Notes: generated by a model not told the origin, from the sequence alone. Shown: positions 27,359 to 39,692, numbered from the stretch's first letter. The stretch is 64,000 bases of DNA from an uncultured Planctomycetota bacterium (GCA_963845755.1 CAWJTV010000003.1:128001-192000); one strand, 5' to 3'. Numbers and translations: made by a program.

Positions 27359-27418
27359 GCCTAACGAAAAAGCTCAGCGGCCCGCCGCAGGCGGGTCCGC
27401 TGGATCGACTTGTTAGCC
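27359..27418 (-). repeat. attC 3
   Basis: GGCTAAC..ATCCAGCGGAC..GCCGCTGAGC..GTTAGGC. Confidence 0.9.
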
Positions 27419-27831
27419 GCGCCCCTCTCTTTCGGTGTGCCGAAGATCTCGTAAAGGACGCGGTTGTCCAGTCGCCGCTCATCGTTCAGTTGCACGAATT
27501 CGGACCATGGCACCCGACGGCTGGGCGGGTGTCGCGGCTTATTCGAATCGTCGCCCCACCACCAGAGCAATGCGACCGATCCGACCGGGAAGATCGAGAG
27601 GAAGTAACCGACGAAGCGAAGCGGCACCAACCGAGCGGGGCCATCCTCACTCCCGTCAATCGATCCGCAACCGCAGCAACCGTTCGTTATGGAATAGTTC
27701 GGGAATTCGCCCACGCACCAGAGGGTGCCTTCTCCATTCGGAAGTCGGTACGCCGACTGGACCGGGAGTGCCAGGAAATCGGTGCCGGCGTCTTCTCTGA
27801 GCTTGACGGTAAGCTCTATGCAGTCGCACAT
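27361..27831 (-). CDS. Cassette 3: Cys-containing hypothetical protein (156 aa), directly after the intron 3' end
   Basis: ATG 27831 preceded by AGGA (MCDCIEL..NGCCGCG). The ORF reads through attC 3 to the TAG in R'. Confidence 0.6.
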   Translation of the reverse strand: MCDCIELTVKLREDAGTDFLALPVQSAYRLPNGEGTLWCVGEFPNYSITNGCCGCGSIDGSEDGPARLVPLRFVGYFLSIFPVGSVALLWWWGDDSNKPRHPPSRRVPWSEFVQLNDERRLDNRVLYEIFGTPKERGAANKSIQRTRLRRAAELFR

Positions 27832-27917
27832 ACGTCCTACGCCGGTCGGGTAAGGAGGTGAGGTTGCCCTCACCCCCTCCCCTCAGAACCGTACGTGCGC
27901 CTTGCGACGCATACGGC

Positions 27918-28924
27918 TCAAGCCTTCTCGAACGCCCCTCGCGGGACACAGCCCAGTCCGCCAGCCTTCCTCTTGCCGTGGATCTGCCGATGGCAGTGGG
28001 CGTGCAACAACTCCAAGTTGTCGTACGTCTCACCGCCGCCTCGATTGCGCCAGATCCGATGATGAATGTGCCAGGGTTCGTCTTCGGCCTGAAGAGGCTG
28101 CCCGCACATCACACATCGACCCCCTTGTCCCTTCCAGAGATACTCGATCCGGCCTCGACCTGCCAGGGTGTGCGTCAGCTTCCAGGCCGACCTCTCCTCC
28201 AGGTAGAGTTCCCACTCCGGATCGTAGGGGTTGGCCGCACTCCGGATCTTCCTCCACCGCAGGACCTTGACCCCGGCCGCTTTCATCAGCCGGATCCGTC
28301 GCGCCGAGCCCGTGCTGTCACGGATTGTGCCCGTGAAGACCCAGTCTCGGTGGCCCTCGCGCTGGAAGTATTTCCTCTTGATCCACTTCCAGTTCTTCTC
28401 GGGATGGCGTCGGCGACACCATCTCATCAGCTTCCGGAAGATCCGATCGTCCACCGCATGGAAGATGCGCTTACTGACCGCATAACGGTGGTACATGGTC
28501 CAGCCCTTGATCTGTTGATTCAGGCGCCGGATTAAGTCGCCCGCCGTCTTGCCGCCCGAGTCGTCGATCGTCGCCTGGATCTTGGCCAGGAACGTCTTGA
28601 TGCTCCGCTTCGATGGCTTGATCAAGACCTTGCCATTAGGGAAGCGTCGCACCGCCTGTCCCAGGAAATCGAAGCCGTCCTCAAGATGGGTGATCCTGGT
28701 CTTCTCGTGGGAGAGTTCGAGACCCCGCTTTCGTAAGAAGTGTTCCACGAGGGGCTGGACTTCACCTCGCAGGAGGACCCTTGATGTGCCGGTAATGATG
28801 AAGTCATCCGCATATCGGACCAGATGGACCTTGCCTCCCGCACGCCGTCGGCGTGTGTTGCTGAAGCGCCGCTCCAGCAACTCTTGCAACCCATCCAGGG
28901 CCCGGTTCGCCAGCGCGGGGGAGA
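27918..28924 (-). CDS. ltrA: Group II intron RT/maturase, C-terminal part (YADD, domain X, HNH endonuclease)
   Basis: SPALAN..LDGL, VRYADDFIIT, GLELSHEKT, GFDFLG, LNQQIKGW..YHR, ANPYDP and C..C..HIHH..NLELLHAHCHRQIH. Confidence 0.93.
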
Positions 28925-30946
28925 TCACGCCCCCAACAATGTTGCAAAACTGTCCCTGATCCCTGACTCTGTCATTTCCAGATCGCGGCTCCGACCGAAG
29001 TATGGGCAAGGATGGCAGCCCGGGCTCGATCCCCGTCCAAGGCAGGCTGACAGCCGCGGTCTTGGAGAGGATGAGTCAACATGATTACATCTCAACGGAG
29101 GTCAGCCCTGAGCCCTCCCGTCACCCGCCATTTCGAGTTCACCCGGTTTCAGGATGAGGTGATCGCGCTGGCATACCAGGCCTTGATCCCGGTCGTTTCT
29201 CGCCACCTGGAACGGTCGCGATCGCGATCTCACGACAACGAGCAGGCCACCACAACGATGCAGGGACTCCGATCAAAGGCCAGAGGAGCTTGACCAGCCA
29301 TGCTCAATCACGATCTCTGTGTGGGGACCTATGGCCGGGTCTCCGGGGACCAACAGTCCAAGGAGGACACGATCGCCAGCCAGCTTGAGGCGATCAGGCA
29401 GCGCGTCGCGAGCGACGGCTTGGTATGCTCCCCCGAGCTGTGCTTTGTGGACGATGGCTACACCGGGGATACCCTGGTCCGCCCGGGCCTCGAACGACTT
29501 CGGGACCAGGCCGCTGCTGGGACCATCGATCGCCTCTACATTCTCGATCCCGATCGACTTTCGCGCAAATATGCCTACCAGGTTTTGATACTCGAGGAAC
29601 TGGCCCGGTGCGGCGTTGAGGTCGTCTTCCTGCGCAATCCCCTGGGTCACGGACCCGAAGAGAACCTGCTTGTGCAGGTCCAGGGCATGATCGCTGAATA
29701 CGAGCGTGCCAAGATCATGGAGCGGTGTCGCCGAGGCAAGCAGTACGCCGCCCGCCACGGCTCGGTCAACGTGCTCAGCGGCGCGCCGTATGGCTACCGC
29801 TACATCGGCAAGCATGAGGGCGGCGGCGCGGCGCGTTATCAGGTCGTGGCCGACGAGGCGCGGATCGTGCGGAAGATCTTCGGGTGGGTCGGCCAGGAAC
29901 GATGCTCGATCGGTGAGGTTTGCCGACGTCTGCAACGCGACGGCGTCCCCACGCGGACGGGCAAATCGGCCTGGGACCGCTCGGTGATCTGGTCGTATCT
30001 CAGGAACCCTGCCTACAAGGGGACGGCCGGTTTCGGCAAGACACCACGCGGGCGCCCTCAAGCCGAAGCGGCTGCGCGCGCAACGCGGCCGTCCTGAGCA
30101 GCCCCGGCGTCCTGTCTCTCGGGTCGATACATCCACGCAAGAACAAATCTTCATCGATGTCCCCGGTTTGGTGAGCGAGGAACTCTTCGGGATGGTTCAA
30201 GCTCAAATCGAGGAGAACCGGCAACGCCGGCGCGAACGGCTCCGTGGCGACCGCTATCTCCTCCAGGGGTTAGTTGTCTGCAAACGGTGCGGCTACGGCT
30301 GCTACGGCAAGCCGGTGAGCCGGGCCTCGGCCAAGGGGAAGGTCCCCTACGCCTACTACCGCTGCACCGGCTCCGACGCCTATCGTTTCGGTGGCCAGCG
30401 ACTGTGTTGGAACAAGCAGGTCCGCACGGATGTCTTGGACGCCGCCGTCTGGGAAGATGTGCGTCATCTCTTGTCCGAGCCCGAACGGGTTCGAGTGGAG
30501 TACGAACGGCGGCTGCACGGGCCGGAGACAGGCCCAGACCGCGAGGTGAAGCATCTCAACAAATTGATTGCGAATCTAAAAAAGATGATCGCTCGATTGA
30601 TCGATGCCTACGGCGAGGGATTACTTAACAAGTCGGAGTTCGAGCCAAGGATCTTGGCAGCGCACGAGCGCCTGGCCAAACTGGAGGATGAGTGTCGGCA
30701 GCAGATTGACGAGGCCAACCAGGAAGCCGAACTGCGGCTGGTGATCGGCCAGTTGGAGGAGTTCGCGAGACGCGTTTCCCACGAGTTGCAAGAGCCGGAC
30801 TGGGCCACGCGACGGGCGATCGTTCGGGCTTTGGTGAAGAAGGTCGAGATCGACGAGCAGGAGGTCCGCATCGTGTATCGGATCAGTCCGTCCCCTTTTG
30901 AGGGAGGCCCCCAACAGGGTTCTTTGCAACATTGTTGGGGGCGTGA
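28925..30946 (+). mobile_element. Large-serine-recombinase element (2022 bp) interrupting the intron RT
   Basis: Perfect 24-bp inverted ends TCACGCCCCCAACAATGTTGCAAA (28925-28948 / 30923-30946), with GA at both junctions (28923-24 / 30945-46). Removing the element restores the RT. Confidence 0.92.
29081..29293 (+). CDS. Small hypothetical protein (70 aa) upstream of the recombinase
   Basis: GAGGA upstream of the ATG; ends 6 bp before the recombinase ATG and contains its RBS (GAGGAG). Confidence 0.6.
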   Translation: MITSQRRSALSPPVTRHFEFTRFQDEVIALAYQALIPVVSRHLERSRSRSHDNEQATTTMQGLRSKARGA

Positions 30947-31289
30947 CGATCCCCCCTTGAGGTGTGCCTTCCGTGGTGGCGAACAGGACGTGCTTCTCCA
31001 GGAACCCGGCCTTCAGCCACTTCCGGAGCACCTCCTTGTCCATGGGGATATGGTCGATCAACCAACGATGGCTGATCCGATCAAAGCAGGCTTTGATATC
31101 CCCCTCCAAGATCCAGCTCGGACCGGGCGGACCCCTGAGGATCTTGTGACACTCATCCAGGGCATCGGCACAGCAGCGTTCCAGTCGAAAGCCGTAGGAA
31201 TGGCCGTCGGCGAGGGACTCTGCGATGGGATCGAGGCCCAGCAGGTAGAGGGCCTGCATGGCTCGATCGGCCATGGTAGGAATCCCTAA
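29300..31289 (+). CDS. Large serine recombinase; frameshift near 30045; reads past the element end at 30946
   Basis: Catalytic YGRVS..Q, DDGYTG..RPGL, DRLSR; recombinase domain (APYGY); Zn ribbon LLQGLVVCKRCG..YYRC; coiled coil; RRAIVRALVKKVEI. Confidence 0.9.
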
Positions 31290-31660
31290 ACCACGTCGCT
31301 GGCCGTTGCTCTTGGGAATGTAAACCCTGCGGAGCGGTTGCGGCCGATAGCCGTGCCGACGCAGGGTGCTGAAGGCCGCCGACTTGACCTCCGGCGTGTT
31401 CCAGAGGATTCCGTCCACGCCGGGGGTCCGCGCACCCGAATTACTGACGACTCGCAAGATGGCCAGAGCCCGGCCACTGTACGAGTGGGTGAGCAGGTAG
31501 ACCAGGGCTTTGGCTTTGTTCCACCTGCCCTCCCGGACTGCCTTTACGATACGCGCTGGAGCCGACGGACCGTGCGCCAGACTTTCTTCCAGGAAATGGA
31601 ATTCCAGTCGGGCGCATGGCCGGGGACCGCACCAACAGGCGTTGCCGCCTGTGCCTTATC
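30947..31660 (-). CDS. ltrA: Group II intron RT/maturase, N-terminal part (start approximate; 1-bp frameshift near 31557)
   Basis: WNSISWKKV..VRRLQ/ARIVKA, TPGVDG, RRVYIPKSNG..RGLGIPTMADRAMQ, SYGFR, WILEGDIKACFD, WLKAG and GTPQGGIV. Confidence 0.92.
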
Positions 31661-32277
31661 TGCTTTGCCCCCTGAGTCAGTTGGCCGAGGTTCTCTCGTA
31701 ACGGAAGACCCGGGGGAAGTCGGCTCCCTTTCGGGCGGGGTGATGTCGCCTGTCGGCTCAACCCCTATCCGACCGGTTAGTGGCCGGCGTTCGCTTCCTC
31801 CCTCGTCCTGTACCCGCCGCCCCATGGGCTCCTCTTGCGAGTCGCCTACCCTCGCGGGGAGGACGACGGGCTTACCACGTTCCGACGATGTGCCAAGGTG
31901 GGGAGGGTCGCCGCTCTTCGCCGGTGGTACGGCATCTGCGCCGGGGAGTTAGGAGCCCCCGGACCTGACCACGTGCCCTTTTGGCCCAAGCGTGACAGCA
32001 TCTTCCGCTTGTTCTCAGTAACGACGTTTATCGCGGCTTCACTTTACGTTAACCCGTCCACCCGATCCTGGTCCCCGACCGCGTTGATGCTGGCAGTCGC
32101 GGCGTCGGCTGGCGCTCCGGCCGCCCTCCCGAGGGAGGAGGATACGTTGTGCCGGGGGCTTGGCACCCCTCCGTTGCCGGAGGCGCACTCCCCGGTGGGA
32201 TACTGCTGGCAGAACAGCAGGTGCTGTCGCCCTCTCCGAGGTCGCAGCACAGTCACATCGGCGACTTCGTGTCGCAC

Positions 32278-32335
32278 CCTAACGCCAAGATCAGCGGCCC
32301 GCCGCAGGCGGGTCCGCTGCATCGCATGGTTAGCC
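32278..32335 (-). repeat. attC 2 (intron target)
   Basis: GGCTAAC..GATGCAGCGGAC..GCCGCTGATC TTGGC GTTAGG|intron. Confidence 0.92.
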
Positions 32336-33084: not shown

Positions 33085-33105
33085 GCCTAACCATTGTTTC
33101 GAAGC
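33085..33105 (-). other. attI site
   Basis: Lone core GAAACAATG-GTTAGGC with no attC hairpin, between intI and the first cassette. Confidence 0.75.
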
Positions 33106-33202: not shown

Positions 33203-34195
33203 ATGGATTATCCCGACCAAACGCGATCAGGAAAGACGCCCAGGTTGCTCGATCGAGTCCGCGAAGCCATCCGGAGATTGCATTACAGCATTCGCACGGA
33301 GACGGCCTACGTCCAGTGGATCAAGCGGTTCATCCTCTTTCATGGCAAGCGGCATCCTCTCGAGATGGGCGAACGCGAGGTCGAAGCCTTCCTCAGCCAT
33401 TTGGCGGTCGAGGGAAACGTCGCGGCCTCGACGCAGAATCAGGCGATGAGTGCCTTGCTGTTCCTCTACAAGATCGTGCTGGATCGCCCTCTGCGCGGTC
33501 GCATCGACGCCTTGAGGGCCAAGCGGCCGGAACGGCTCCCCGTCGTCCTCACACGTACCGAGGTCCGCGCGATCCTGGCCCAGCTCGATGGCGACAAGCA
33601 TCTCATGGCGAGCTTGTTGTACGGCTCCGGGCTGAGGCTGATGGAGTGCCTCCGCCTCAGGATCAAGGACGTCGATTTCGGGCAAAATCACATCCTCGTC
33701 CGTGACGGCAAGGGGCAGAAAGACCGGGTGACCCTCCTTCCCCGCTCGCTGATCGAACCGTTGAAGAGCCGGATTGCGATCGTCCGCCGTCTGCATGAAC
33801 GCGACCTTAGTGAGGGATTCGGCCGGGTCTATCTCCCGCACGCTCTGGCGGAGAAATACCCAAACGCCGATCGTGAGCCCGGCTGGCAATACCTGTTCCC
33901 CGCACCACAGCGATCGCTCGATCCTCGAACCGACATCCCGCGGCGACACCATCTGGCCGAGACCGCCTTGCAGAAGGCCATCCGTGGCGCCGTCCGCCGT
34001 GCCGGGATCGTCAAGCCGGCCAGTTGCCACACGTTTCGCCATAGCTTCGCCACACACTTGCTCGAGGCCGGTCAGGACATTCGCACGGTCCAGGTGCTTC
34101 TCGGTCACAAAGATGTCGCCACGACGATGATCTACACCCATGTCCTGAACCAAGGTCCCCTCGGCGTCCGCAGCCCCATCGACTTCCTCAACTAG
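33203..34195 (+). CDS. intI: Integron integrase
   Basis: [37 protein letters not shown], integron-specific insert ([24 protein letters not shown]), [12 protein letters not shown] and LLGH..TTMIYTH. Confidence 0.97.
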
Positions 34196-38031: not shown

Positions 38032-39692
38032 GATCCACTACCCCTTCCAACATGCTGAGTTAATTATTATAACCTCTTTGGCTGGGATGGTTTTCGTTCC
38101 CGATCACGGAGGGCTACCTATGTCTCCCAGGCTGATTGATCTCGATGGGCCGACGAAGCGCTGCGGACGGACCTCCCAGCCGGTGGTGCCACCCCCGCGC
38201 CCCGCCGCCCGGCTGGATCTCCTCGACCCTGCCCCTCCACTCATCGCGGACCTCCCGGCCATCCTCAATCCCTGCATTCAGGAGTCCCCGGCCACCGTGA
38301 TGACCCGTATCACCCTGGATTGGCTCCTCCAGGGCACCCCCTTCGACCTCCTCTTCGAGCAGTCCGCCGAGGGCGAATACTGCCGCGAGTTTACCCTCGA
38401 GCACCTCGTGTTGGTCATGCTCGACGTCGTCTGTGGGTTCAACCCCTCCACCCGCTCGGCGTTCCTGGGGCGCCAGCTCCCACTGATCGCCTCGCTCTCG
38501 GCCTTCTACGGCAAGCTCAATCGCCTGAGCCCGGCCATCACCGCCGCGGTCGTCCGCCACACGGCGATCCGCTGCCGCGCCCTGATCGAAGGCGGCGGGG
38601 GCCTGCTGCCGGAGCCGATCCCCGGCTACTGCGCCCGCATCCTCGACGGCAACGTCCTGGCCGGGACCGACCATCGCCTGACCCCGACGCGGACCACCTG
38701 GTCGGCCTGTCTGCCCGGCAAGTCGCTGGCGATCTACGAGCCGGCCAGCGGCTTGATCACCGATCTGATCCTGGAGGAGAACGCCCACACCCAGGAGCGC
38801 AACCTGCTCAAGGAAGTCCCCGTCTCGGCCGGCGAGCTGTGGATCCTCGACCGCAACTTGTGCGTCCGCACCTTCTTGTTCCGCATCGCGCGAGCCGGCG
38901 GGTCCTTCCTGGCACGGCGGCACCAAACGACGTTGCCCTACGAACCAGCCGGGCCGCGGCAGTCGCGGGGGCGCTGCCCGACCGGCAAGGTCCACGAGCA
39001 GCCGATCCTCGTGGACGATCCCGAGACGCCCGGGGCGGCGCATCGCCTGCGGCTGATCATCCTGGAATTGGACGAGCCGACGCGGGAGGGGGAGACGGAG
39101 ATCATCCTGGTGACCAACCTGCCCGAGGATGTCTCGGCGATCGACTGCTGCGCCGCGTACCGGGGCCGCTGGGGGATCGAGGGCCATTTCCAGGTGCTGA
39201 CCGACCTGCTGAATTGCGAGATCCCCACGCTGGGCTACCCGCGCGCGGCACTGTTCGGCTTCGGGATGTCGGCCGTGGCCGGCAACGCCCTGGCGGTGCT
39301 CAAGGGCGGCCTGCGGGCGGAGCACGGCCGGGAGATGGCCGCAGAAGTGTCGAATCATGCCGTGGTCACCGAGGTGGCGCGGATCTACCCGGGGATGATG
39401 ACGGCGGTCCCGCCGCGACTGTGGCCGGAGCTGAGCGATCGCCCGGTGCAGGAGGTGGCGGATTTGCTCAACGAGTTGGCGGCTCGGATGTCGGTGGAGT
39501 GGATGCTCCGGGTACGACGCGGGCCGAAGAAGAAGAAACCGCATCGGAGCAAGGGGGACCGAAACCATCATTTGGCCACCAAGAAGCTACTGGACGAGGC
39601 CAAGGGGATGTGCCCGCCCAGAGCGGGGTGAGGCGCAACCCACATGGCATCAAGAGTTTGATTATAACGAGTTTGCATGTTGGAAGGGGTAG
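38032..39692 (+). mobile_element. IS4-family element inserted in a REP
   Basis: 18-bp IR CTACCCCTTCCAACATGC (38038-38055 / 39675-39692); 10-bp direct repeat GTGGGTGAAA (38022-38031 / 39693-39702). Confidence 0.82.
38120..39631 (+). CDS. IS4-family transposase
   Basis: RILDGN, WILDRN and the YREK-like signature YRGRWGIEGHFQ. Confidence 0.88.
   Translation: MSPRLIDLDGPTKRCGRTSQPVVPPPRPAARLDLLDPAPPLIADLPAILNPCIQESPATVMTRITLDWLLQGTPFDLLFEQSAEGEYCREFTLEHLVLVMLDVVCGFNPSTRSAFLGRQLPLIASLSAFYGKLNRLSPAITAAVVRHTAIRCRALIEGGGGLLPEPIPGYCARILDGNVLAGTDHRLTPTRTTWSACLPGKSLAIYEPASGLITDLILEENAHTQERNLLKEVPVSAGELWILDRNLCVRTFLFRIARAGGSFLARRHQTTLPYEPAGPRQSRGRCPTGKVHEQPILVDDPETPGAAHRLRLIILELDEPTREGETEIILVTNLPEDVSAIDCCAAYRGRWGIEGHFQVLTDLLNCEIPTLGYPRAALFGFGMSAVAGNALAVLKGGLRAEHGREMAAEVSNHAVVTEVARIYPGMMTAVPPRLWPELSDRPVQEVADLLNELAARMSVEWMLRVRRGPKKKKPHRSKGDRNHHLATKKLLDEAKGMCPPRAG

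Follow-up and report, generated by a model that had tools for sequence, protein, structure and literature searches.

A group II intron within the cassette array of an integron

The stretch of DNA analysed here (the window) comprises 64,000 nucleotides from an uncultured Planctomycetota bacterium (GCA_963845755.1, CAWJTV010000003.1:128001-192000) and holds a group II intron that interrupts attC 2, a recombination site in the cassette array of an integron. The integron around the intron is complete, with an integrase (IntI, 33203-34195) and eight cassettes on the minus strand. The intI gene lies on the plus strand, divergent from the array, and was recognized by TIGR02249 (485.2 bits; cut-off 265) and by the domains Phage_integrase and Phage_int_SAM_4. 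A GTTAGGC core, read from the sequence at 33085-33091 on the minus strand, marks the boundary between attI and the first cassette. The eight attC sites of the window, 57 to 61 nt long and all on the minus strand, share the common core GCAGCGGACCCGC...GCGGGCCGCTGA and separate short minus-strand open reading frames (ORFs), one of which has an FHA domain. The cassette ORFs begin just past each R' box and end at each R'' box.

The intron occupies positions 27845-32277 of the minus strand, a length of 4433 nt including a nested mobile element, and is of a IIB1 and chloroplast-like 1 (CL1)-like type. It was delimited by two Rfam matches on the minus strand and by its boundaries. RF02012 (domain I) matched 32071-32221 with 100.8 bits against a gathering score of 34, and RF00029 (domains V-VI) matched 27845-27921 with 61.8 bits against a gathering score of 40. 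The intron's 5' end is GUGCGAC at 32277 and its 3' end is ...CCCGAC at 27845, so that the termini GUGCG...GAC follow the group II consensus of a 5' GUGYG and a 3' AY. On the minus strand the 5' junction reads ...GGCGTTAGG|GTGCGACACG at 32278/32277 (with a longer reading of the exon, ...GATCTTGGCGTTAGG|GTGCGACACG), and the 3' junction reads ...CCTTACCCGAC|CGGCGTAGG at 27845/27844. Domain V (27886-27919) was identified by RF00029 and by sequence; it is 34 nt long and carries the AGC triad at positions 2-4. Domain VI and the 3' splice site (...CCUUACCCGAC) fill 27845-27885, as defined by RF00029, by sequence and by the aligned 3' ends of relatives.

The insertion point falls within the R' box of attC 2, at GTTAGG|C, five bases past the crossover point G|TT. 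The remnant of attC 2 to the left of the intron (32278-32335, minus strand; attC hidden Markov model (HMM) match with E 9.8e-15) constitutes the 5' exon. In its sequence we recognize, on the minus strand, the R'' box GGCTAAC (32329-32335), the intron-binding site IBS2 UCUUGG (32285-32290) and IBS1, which is the GTTAGG of R' (32278-32283). The 3' exon opens with the C that closes R', and this base represents IBS3 (27844, minus strand), an assignment that draws on sequence and on the covariation described below; it belongs to cassette 3, whose ORF downstream of the intron (27361-27831, minus strand) encodes 156 residues with no Pfam family. The original prediction, made from the sequence alone, had extended the intron from 27845 to 32335. 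The lower limit is retained here, but the upper limit had also covered the 5' exon, 58 nt of attC 2. Its placement of the intron at GTTAGG|C in the R' box agrees with the junction sequence, and its description of a 34-nt domain V with an AGC triad is likewise upheld.

Orientation is central to the comparison with known attC introns. The minus strand is the cassette-sense (top) strand because intI and the array diverge, each cassette ORF lies between an R' and an R'', and the plus strand, when folded as DNA, carried its unpaired bases on the 3' arm in all six attC sites folded. The bottom strand of an attC site is the one that carries its unpaired bases on the 3' arm. The hairpin folds of the attC sites gave z values of -1.8 to -3.5. 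The intron lies in the cassette sense, and its proposed shared orientation with the cassette genes is thus supported by three lines of evidence, namely the geometry of intI and attI, the cassette ORFs and the unpaired bases of the plus strand.

Pairing between the intron and its exons

Relatives of the intron gathered from 61 related genomes, 80 metagenome loci and 46 genome loci provided the comparative material for the exon-binding sites (EBS). Exons were read from the alignment with inserted columns dropped, which left a few strings one base short (e.g., in L143) and could only lower the scores of introns against their own exons. The hairpin CCGGGG-GCUCCUAACU-CCCCGG (31941-31962, minus strand) displays CCUAAC at 31948-31953. 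The RNAalifold consensus of 28 sequences predicted this hairpin, with changes on both sides at 4 of its 7 pairs and in 13 sequences at the closing pair. Furthermore, the loop covaried with the exon. It matched the last six bases of its own exon at a mean of 5.05 of 6 positions versus 2.54 for the exons of other introns, and the match was perfect in 32 of 59 distinct intron-exon pairs versus 27 of 3284 non-cognate pairs. As judged from sequence comparison, the CCUAAC loop is EBS1. This is the role originally proposed for it, and the position of the hairpin, the compensatory changes and the covariation with the cognate exon all concur.

The EBS2 candidate put forward in the original prediction, AAGAU, was found where it had been placed (32000-32004, minus strand), but the role assigned to it was not sustained. 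AAGAT occurs in 37 of 59 relatives whatever the exon, and in the consensus fold the motif lies in the terminal loop of a covarying hairpin (alignment A2, columns 32-37/51-56). We therefore rejected it as EBS2 and describe it as a conserved terminal-loop motif.

The segment that covaries with the exon, at exon positions of about -13 to -8, lies 10 nt upstream of AAGAU and is unpaired in the consensus fold. In the window intron it reads CUGAG (32014-32018, minus strand; intron positions 260-264). Across the relatives, the segment scored 3.98 of 5 against the intron's own exon versus 2.95 for other exons, and the pairing was perfect in 22 of 59 own pairs versus 190 of 3318 non-cognate pairs. In family 1, the group of near-identical copies to which the window intron belongs, CUGAG pairs with CUUGG of the attC 3' arm, two of the pairs being G-U. 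Two further families occur in the same genome. In family 2 the EBS2 GUGCG faces the exon CGCAC, and in family 3 the EBS2 CCAAG is a perfect Watson-Crick match to the CUUGG of the attC spacer, so that two transitions between families 3 and 1 turn two Watson-Crick pairs into G-U. Other EBS2 sequences among the relatives (ACAAA, ACAGA, CCAAU, ACUGC) match their own exons as well.

When the columns of domain I were searched for the best pairing partner of the first 3'-exon base, intron position 362, a G at 31916 on the minus strand, emerged as EBS3, which pairs with the IBS3 C at 27844. This best covarying column formed Watson-Crick pairs with the exon base in 81% of 37 sequences, with G-C, A-T, T-A and C-G all represented; in family 2, whose 3' exon begins with A, the position is U. 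With EBS1, EBS2 and EBS3 together, the RNA would thus read all seven bases of R' along with part of the spacer.

The intron-encoded protein and its class

The gene for the intron-encoded protein is present in two halves on the minus strand. The N-terminal half (30943-31662) contains RVT_N and the start of RVT_1, and was established from Pfam, from a TIGR04416 match on 30621-31457 and from alignment to P0001, the protein of an intact sister copy. The C-terminal half (27918-28928) contains, according to Pfam, the end of RVT_1, the maturase domain GIIM and an HNH endonuclease. TIGR04416 matches both halves. Because an element of 2 kb splits the reverse transcriptase (RT) gene, the window intron cannot make its own protein; the original prediction had made no mention of this split. 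The uninterrupted sister copy encodes the 574 residues of P0001, with RVT_N, RVT_1, GIIM and HNH.

When all solved structures were searched, P0001 aligned to the RT of T.el4h with 602.8 bits (E 6e-180) over residues 10-557, HNH included. Four class C RT chains scored 136.6, 125.9, 108 and 106.3 bits, and LtrA scored 127.1. T.el4h (Th.e.I3) is described as a IIB1 intron with a chloroplast-like 1 RT (PMC8643678). The scores, as sequence evidence, firmly indicate that the intron is not of class C, and CL1 is the best reading of its RT class. The argument against class IIC in the original prediction is thus borne out by the HNH domain and by the gap between 602.8 bits for T.el4h and at most 137 for class C RTs, and the HNH domain itself was recovered by Pfam both in the window fragment and in P0001. 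The proteins of group IIC-attC introns are not known to carry an endonuclease domain; the protein examined here has an HNH endonuclease and matches class C proteins at no more than 137 bits.

Copies in the genome and the choice of site

The genome (G000) comprises 14.27 Mb in 49 contigs and contains seven family-1 copies of 98-100% identity, namely the window copy, four on contig C47 and two on C41. Together with one ORF-less relative, they make eight introns at seven attC sites, all at the same position and in the cassette sense. Six occupied sites read GTTAGG| and one reads GTTAGA|. All family-1 copies are then followed by C, except one that directly abuts the next copy in a tandem pair. Three arrays are involved, and both of the other arrays have a truncated intI on the same side and strand as in the window. 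The ORF-less relative, assigned to family 3 (862 nt; C41:16110-16971), is about 78% identical and sits at GTTAGG|C of another attC site, to which its EBS1 and EBS2 are perfect Watson-Crick matches. Protein frames of family 1 are open in three copies, broken in two, and interrupted by the recombinase element in two. The intron copies are 2412-2415 nt long, and near-identical repeats of both intron and recombinase element differ mostly by single-base indels at varying places. Since these variable indels occur among otherwise identical repeats, some of the frame breaks may be assembly errors rather than pseudogenes.

An HMM built from the window's own attC sites recovered 97 sites in the genome. 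Of the 940 occurrences of the hexamer GTTAGG on both strands, attC top strands account for 37, attC bottom strands for 29 and other DNA for 874, and the occupied sites are in seven of seven cases attC top-strand R' boxes. The probability that six random insertions at GTTAGG would all fall in attC top strands is about 4e-9 by our own arithmetic, which ignores selection. Placement at attC is beyond chance, and the attC-specific occurrence that characterizes group IIC-attC introns is therefore found here as well, all seven occupied sites being attC. A full five-pair IBS2 was present at 6 of 7 occupied sites versus 13 of 40 unoccupied attC sites with GTTAG(G/A) (Fisher one-sided p 0.013). Within the window, attI and attC 3-6 do offer GTTAGG on the minus strand, as originally noted, but not a full IBS2; attC 3-6 would form only three or four of five IBS2 pairs, which fits the presence of the intron at attC 2 alone.

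Such a distribution could also arise if the intron inserted at any GTTAGG-like site and only the harmless copies in attC survived. A selection filter of this kind is conceivable in a gene-dense genome in which 874 of the 940 GTTAGG sites lie outside attC. However, all seven occupied sites are R' boxes of attC top strands, and not one of the 29 GTTAGG sites in attC bottom strands, nor any in other intergenic DNA, is occupied. The enrichment of IBS2 matches at occupied sites, the family-3 EBS2 that is perfect for the attC spacer, and the repetition of the pattern by relatives in other genomes also speak against selective survival, which we hold to be very unlikely.

Alternatively, the integron integrase, and not retrohoming, could have distributed the copies as cassette passengers. 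The insertion point falls within the next cassette, after G|TT, so that IntI could in principle move intron and cassette together. IntI would, however, keep the downstream cassette linked to the intron, and the cassettes on both sides differ at every occupied site, both flanks diverging from the first base after the C. The tandem pair, which has no exon between its members, is explained by retrohoming into a retained IBS1 and not by cassette recombination. Consequently, we find passenger transport scarcely credible as the source of the copies.

The tandem family-1 pair (C47:13544-20386; L030/L031) has zero exon bases between its members; the upstream copy follows an attC GTTAGG and the downstream copy bears the recombinase element. 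In the metagenome contigs L085 and L089, an intron 3' end is likewise joined directly to an intron 5' end. The tandem arrangement fits a second homing event into the IBS1 left intact by the first insertion.

Other members of the three families extend these observations. Family 2 is 75-79% identical, displays the loop CAUCGA and sits at ...UCGAUG|A or ...UUGAUG|A. It was found at C45:64868, C43:475, C38:1308, C24:7657, C14:90700 and C13:328696, always after a 17-20-nt target, ...CTC(C/T)CCGCACT(T/C)T(T/C)GATG|A, that is present at many places in the genome. A family-3 relative on C4 (near 41393) has its EBS1 changed to UCAGAC and sits at GUCUGA| outside attC. Among attC sites, 13 unoccupied ones with full IBS1 and IBS2 matches exist genome-wide, most of them on C39. 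The intI of C39 is broken by internal stops and that of C18 is a fragment.

Relatives in other genomes and metagenomes

Introns at attC recur outside this genome. In the sister genome G001, a family-1-like fragment (89% identical) follows ...GTTAGG| within an attC array, and a family-3 intron with the EBS2 ACCAAGA follows ...TCTTGGTCGTTAGC|. A Planctomycetota metagenome-assembled genome (L143; RT 91% identical) has its intron behind a complete attC of the same family, which ends in GTTGGG and lies in an array of like-oriented attC sites. In two soil contigs (L091, L066), an attC 3' arm and GTTAGG| precede the intron. The attC-sited introns of G001 and those of L143, L091 and L066 all have CCUAAC as EBS1. 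A further 89%-identical copy in G001, with the EBS1 UUGCAC, occupies the non-attC site GUGAAA|. The original prediction had proposed a survey of relatives as a check, and among those with a CCUAAC EBS1 and a readable exon none was at a clearly non-attC site. Each of the outcomes that the original prediction had named as refuting it was decided in its favour.

In an RT tree with 41 rows, introns with CCUAAC formed one group (SH-aLRT 89) inside a clade of introns from Planctomycetota and soil metagenomes, the remaining members of which have other targets. Note that the tree label 'attC' of L144 denotes an attC match nearby in the locus, the insertion site itself not being seen.

A metagenome contig (L084) with a 92%-related intron and the EBS1 CCGAAC may document a change of target. 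Here a 93-nt attC-like hairpin, GCCGAAC...GTTCGG|, precedes the intron (locus position 327), about 96 nt upstream; it folds as DNA at -26.9 kcal/mol and is unlike the attC family of the window in sequence. Among other relatives with the EBS1 CCGAAC, no clear attC was seen for L131 and L068-L070, and the introns of L089 and L085 come after another intron. The locus may thus represent a second attC family that was followed through a change in EBS1.

A proposed route of insertion

We consider it highly likely that a mobile intron of IIB1 type with a CL1-type protein entered attC 2 by retrohoming through the pairings of EBS1, EBS2 and EBS3. In this scheme, EBS2 CUGAG would pair on the top strand with the CUUGG that lies in the attC 3'-arm spacer, EBS1 CCUAAC with the R' core GUUAGG, and the EBS3 G with the C that closes the R' box; the three pairings together would direct reverse splicing to GTTAGG|C. 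The protein has predicted RT, maturase, DNA-binding and HNH endonuclease parts, and by analogy with other members of the family HNH would nick the other strand to prime cDNA synthesis. Since the intron lies in the cassette sense, it should in principle be excisable from cassette transcripts, with restoration of the attC RNA, and IntI could carry it as the head of the next cassette. The window copy could be spliced or moved by the protein of the three open-frame sisters, given that it retains its ribozyme parts, near-identical to those of the sister copies. That the intron is spliced, that it is mobile today and what becomes of an intron-bearing attC when IntI recombines it are in this account what we infer from the sequence.

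A number of observations weigh against this route, or at least against its completeness. At the level of the RNA, the EBS2-IBS2 helix of family 1 contains two G-U pairs. A Watson-Crick EBS2a-IBS2a pair is described for IIB1 introns in PMC8643678; judged by eye in a register of our choosing, it is formed in family 2 (G-C), L043 (A-U) and the C4 copy of family 3 (G-C) but not in the C41 copy of family 3 (C-U) or in family 1, where it would be U-U. A single-sequence fold of the first 428 nt was no better than shuffles (z -0.95) and mispaired the EBS1 hairpin, so that the structure of domain I rests on comparison with relatives. The class of the protein was assigned by similarity to one solved reference rather than by a tree of all classes. 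At the attC sites studied here, T and C are the bases left unpaired, in contrast to the G and T of model attC sites. No RNA run was listed for the region, so that splicing and mobility are deduced, and no read joint skipping the intron or the nested element was found in four soil-metagenome runs, whose short, low-depth contigs are uninformative on splicing and on empty sites. With respect to site choice, 24 non-attC sites combine GTTAGG with a five-of-five IBS2 under a loose pairing rule and none is occupied, in comparison with 5 of 17 such attC sites (hypergeometric p about 0.008, our own arithmetic). The two largest arrays, C39 (31 attC) and C18 (15 attC), hold matching sites and no intron. 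Base pairing as scored is therefore insufficient to explain the choice of site. Because the 24 matching non-attC sites are empty, something beyond pairing must contribute, whether contacts made by the protein (perhaps to the conserved CCGCTGA arm), the structure of the DNA or selection.

These empty sites lend some weight to the idea that the attC hairpin or single-stranded attC is what is recognized, in the way class C introns recognize terminators and attC bottom strands, and not a base-paired target. The intron does lie just 3' of a hairpin-forming sequence, and one may speculate that a U-U at EBS2a/IBS2a would be tolerated on unwound DNA. Close relatives with other EBS1 and EBS2 sequences, however, sit at matching sites that give no attC HMM match or attC-like fold; these were examined by eye for family 2, by folding for L090 and L068, and by HMM scan for L034 and L068-L070. 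The lineage therefore needs no hairpin as such. The 6-nt EBS1 and the EBS2 found here also differ from what PMC8643678 and PMC7923331 give for class C. We judge recognition of the hairpin in place of pairing to be highly improbable, and prefer insertion guided by the three exon-binding sites.

Whether these introns amount to a Planctomycetota lineage of HNH-bearing IIB1 introns specialized on attC, which multiplies within cassette arrays in the sense direction, rides on cassettes and changes EBS1 with its target (CCUAAC with GTTAGG; CCGAAC with GTTCGG), is in our estimation an evenly balanced question.

A serine-recombinase element nested in the intron

The element that interrupts the RT gene spans 2014 bp (28929-30942, plus strand) and encodes a large serine recombinase with Resolvase (PF00239), Recombinase (PF07508) and Zn_ribbon_recom (PF13408) domains. 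It has inverted ends (GCCCCCAACAATGTTGCAA...) and a 70-residue ORF at 29081-29293. The recombinase gene is in two frames in the window copy (29300-30097 and 30168 onward), and the frame is broken at varying places in other copies. Six copies exist in the genome: the window copy, C24:302-2267, C16:2863-4828, C47:14650-16614, C6:31962-33928 and C22:829-2798. All six abut RT genes at GTPQGG(I/V)(I/V)|SP(A/L)LAN, in either orientation, though beside the C6 copy the RT fails to continue on one flank. Copies from six further genomes of the family had the same RT motif at 9 of the 10 flanks examined, in different RT genes. The ends of the element, once joined, would form a palindrome. The element looks like one that specializes on reverse-transcriptase genes, and a literature search for serine-recombinase elements targeting RT genes gave nothing relevant among the matches listed. 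In the genome G022 (C372:76-2099; L193, L200), one copy of the element has an identical 45-nt RT-gene stretch on either side, in inverted orientation. This arrangement, to which C6 of G000 is similar, may be a product of inversion or a misassembly of a short contig.

A 517-residue ORF with a weak DDE transposase match (38078-39631, plus strand; E 0.0018, under the Pfam cut-off) lies 4 kb beyond intI.

Relation to known attC introns

Group IIC-attC introns, such as S.ma.I2 of Serratia marcescens, resemble the introns described here in being specific to attC near its conserved core and in occurring in several integrons (PMC3001079, PMC7923331). They differ in target and recognition. According to PMC3001079, class C introns at attC enter the bottom strand and lie opposite to cassette transcription, and according to PMC7923331 they do so at R'' in TTGT/T; the introns of this study occupy R' of the top strand (GTTAGG|C) and run in the cassette sense. 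The same papers attribute to group IIC-attC introns a hairpin and an EBS1 of 3-4 bp with no EBS2, in contrast to the 6-nt EBS1, the EBS2 and the EBS3 found here. A single case from 2012 of a class C intron in the attC top strand, cited in PMC7923331, shares the cassette sense but is of a different class.

The statement in the original prediction that the characterized attC introns are all of class IIC is out of date. UHB.I2, reported by Sonbol and Siam in 2021, is a IIB1/CL1 intron in cassette orientation located immediately after attC on a metagenome contig from a soda lake (PMC7923331). It shares with the window intron the cassette orientation and the adjoining attC and, on the best reading of the window intron's class, IIB1 type and a CL1 protein. 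It is described there, however, as a single copy at the end of a contig, with no endonuclease domain, with atypical ends (UUGCG..GU) and with no EBS3 bulge found; its relatives are said to be without conservation of flanking exons, and the authors propose no programmed pairing with the attC core. By comparison, the present case comprises eight introns at seven attC sites, an HNH domain, canonical boundaries, and EBS1, EBS2 and EBS3 sequences that match attC. Full-text literature searching gave, among the works listed, no further one on IIB introns at attC. Accordingly, what is new here is the many copies, the endonuclease and the match of EBS1, EBS2 and EBS3 to attC, since a IIB1/CL1 intron beside attC was already published in 2021.

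Among IIB1 introns, T.el4h (Th.e.I3) and EcI5 are the closest points of reference, and the T.el4h RT aligns end to end. As described in PMC8643678, IIB1 introns have their EBS2 unpaired some 60 nt ahead of the EBS1 hairpin, and the base that opens the 3' exon is read by EBS3, both as found here. T.el4h and EcI5 home to ordinary gene or intergenic targets, whereas the set of exon-binding sites in the lineage of the window matches a recombination site.

Implications for integron and intron evolution

Integrons are the main gene-capture platform of bacteria, and discussion of attC introns has cast them as agents that shape cassette arrays and even make cassettes. That discussion was based on the antisense IIC-attC class, which blocks cassette transcription, and on a single IIB1 case. 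A sense-oriented, HNH-bearing lineage guided by pairing would be removable by splicing, would leave the IntI crossover point intact and would become part of the next cassette. It would also provide a natural IIB1 example with target rules that can be read from many insertion sites. If the existence of such a Planctomycetota lineage holds true, group II introns would have colonized integrons a second time, by a mechanism unlike that of class C.

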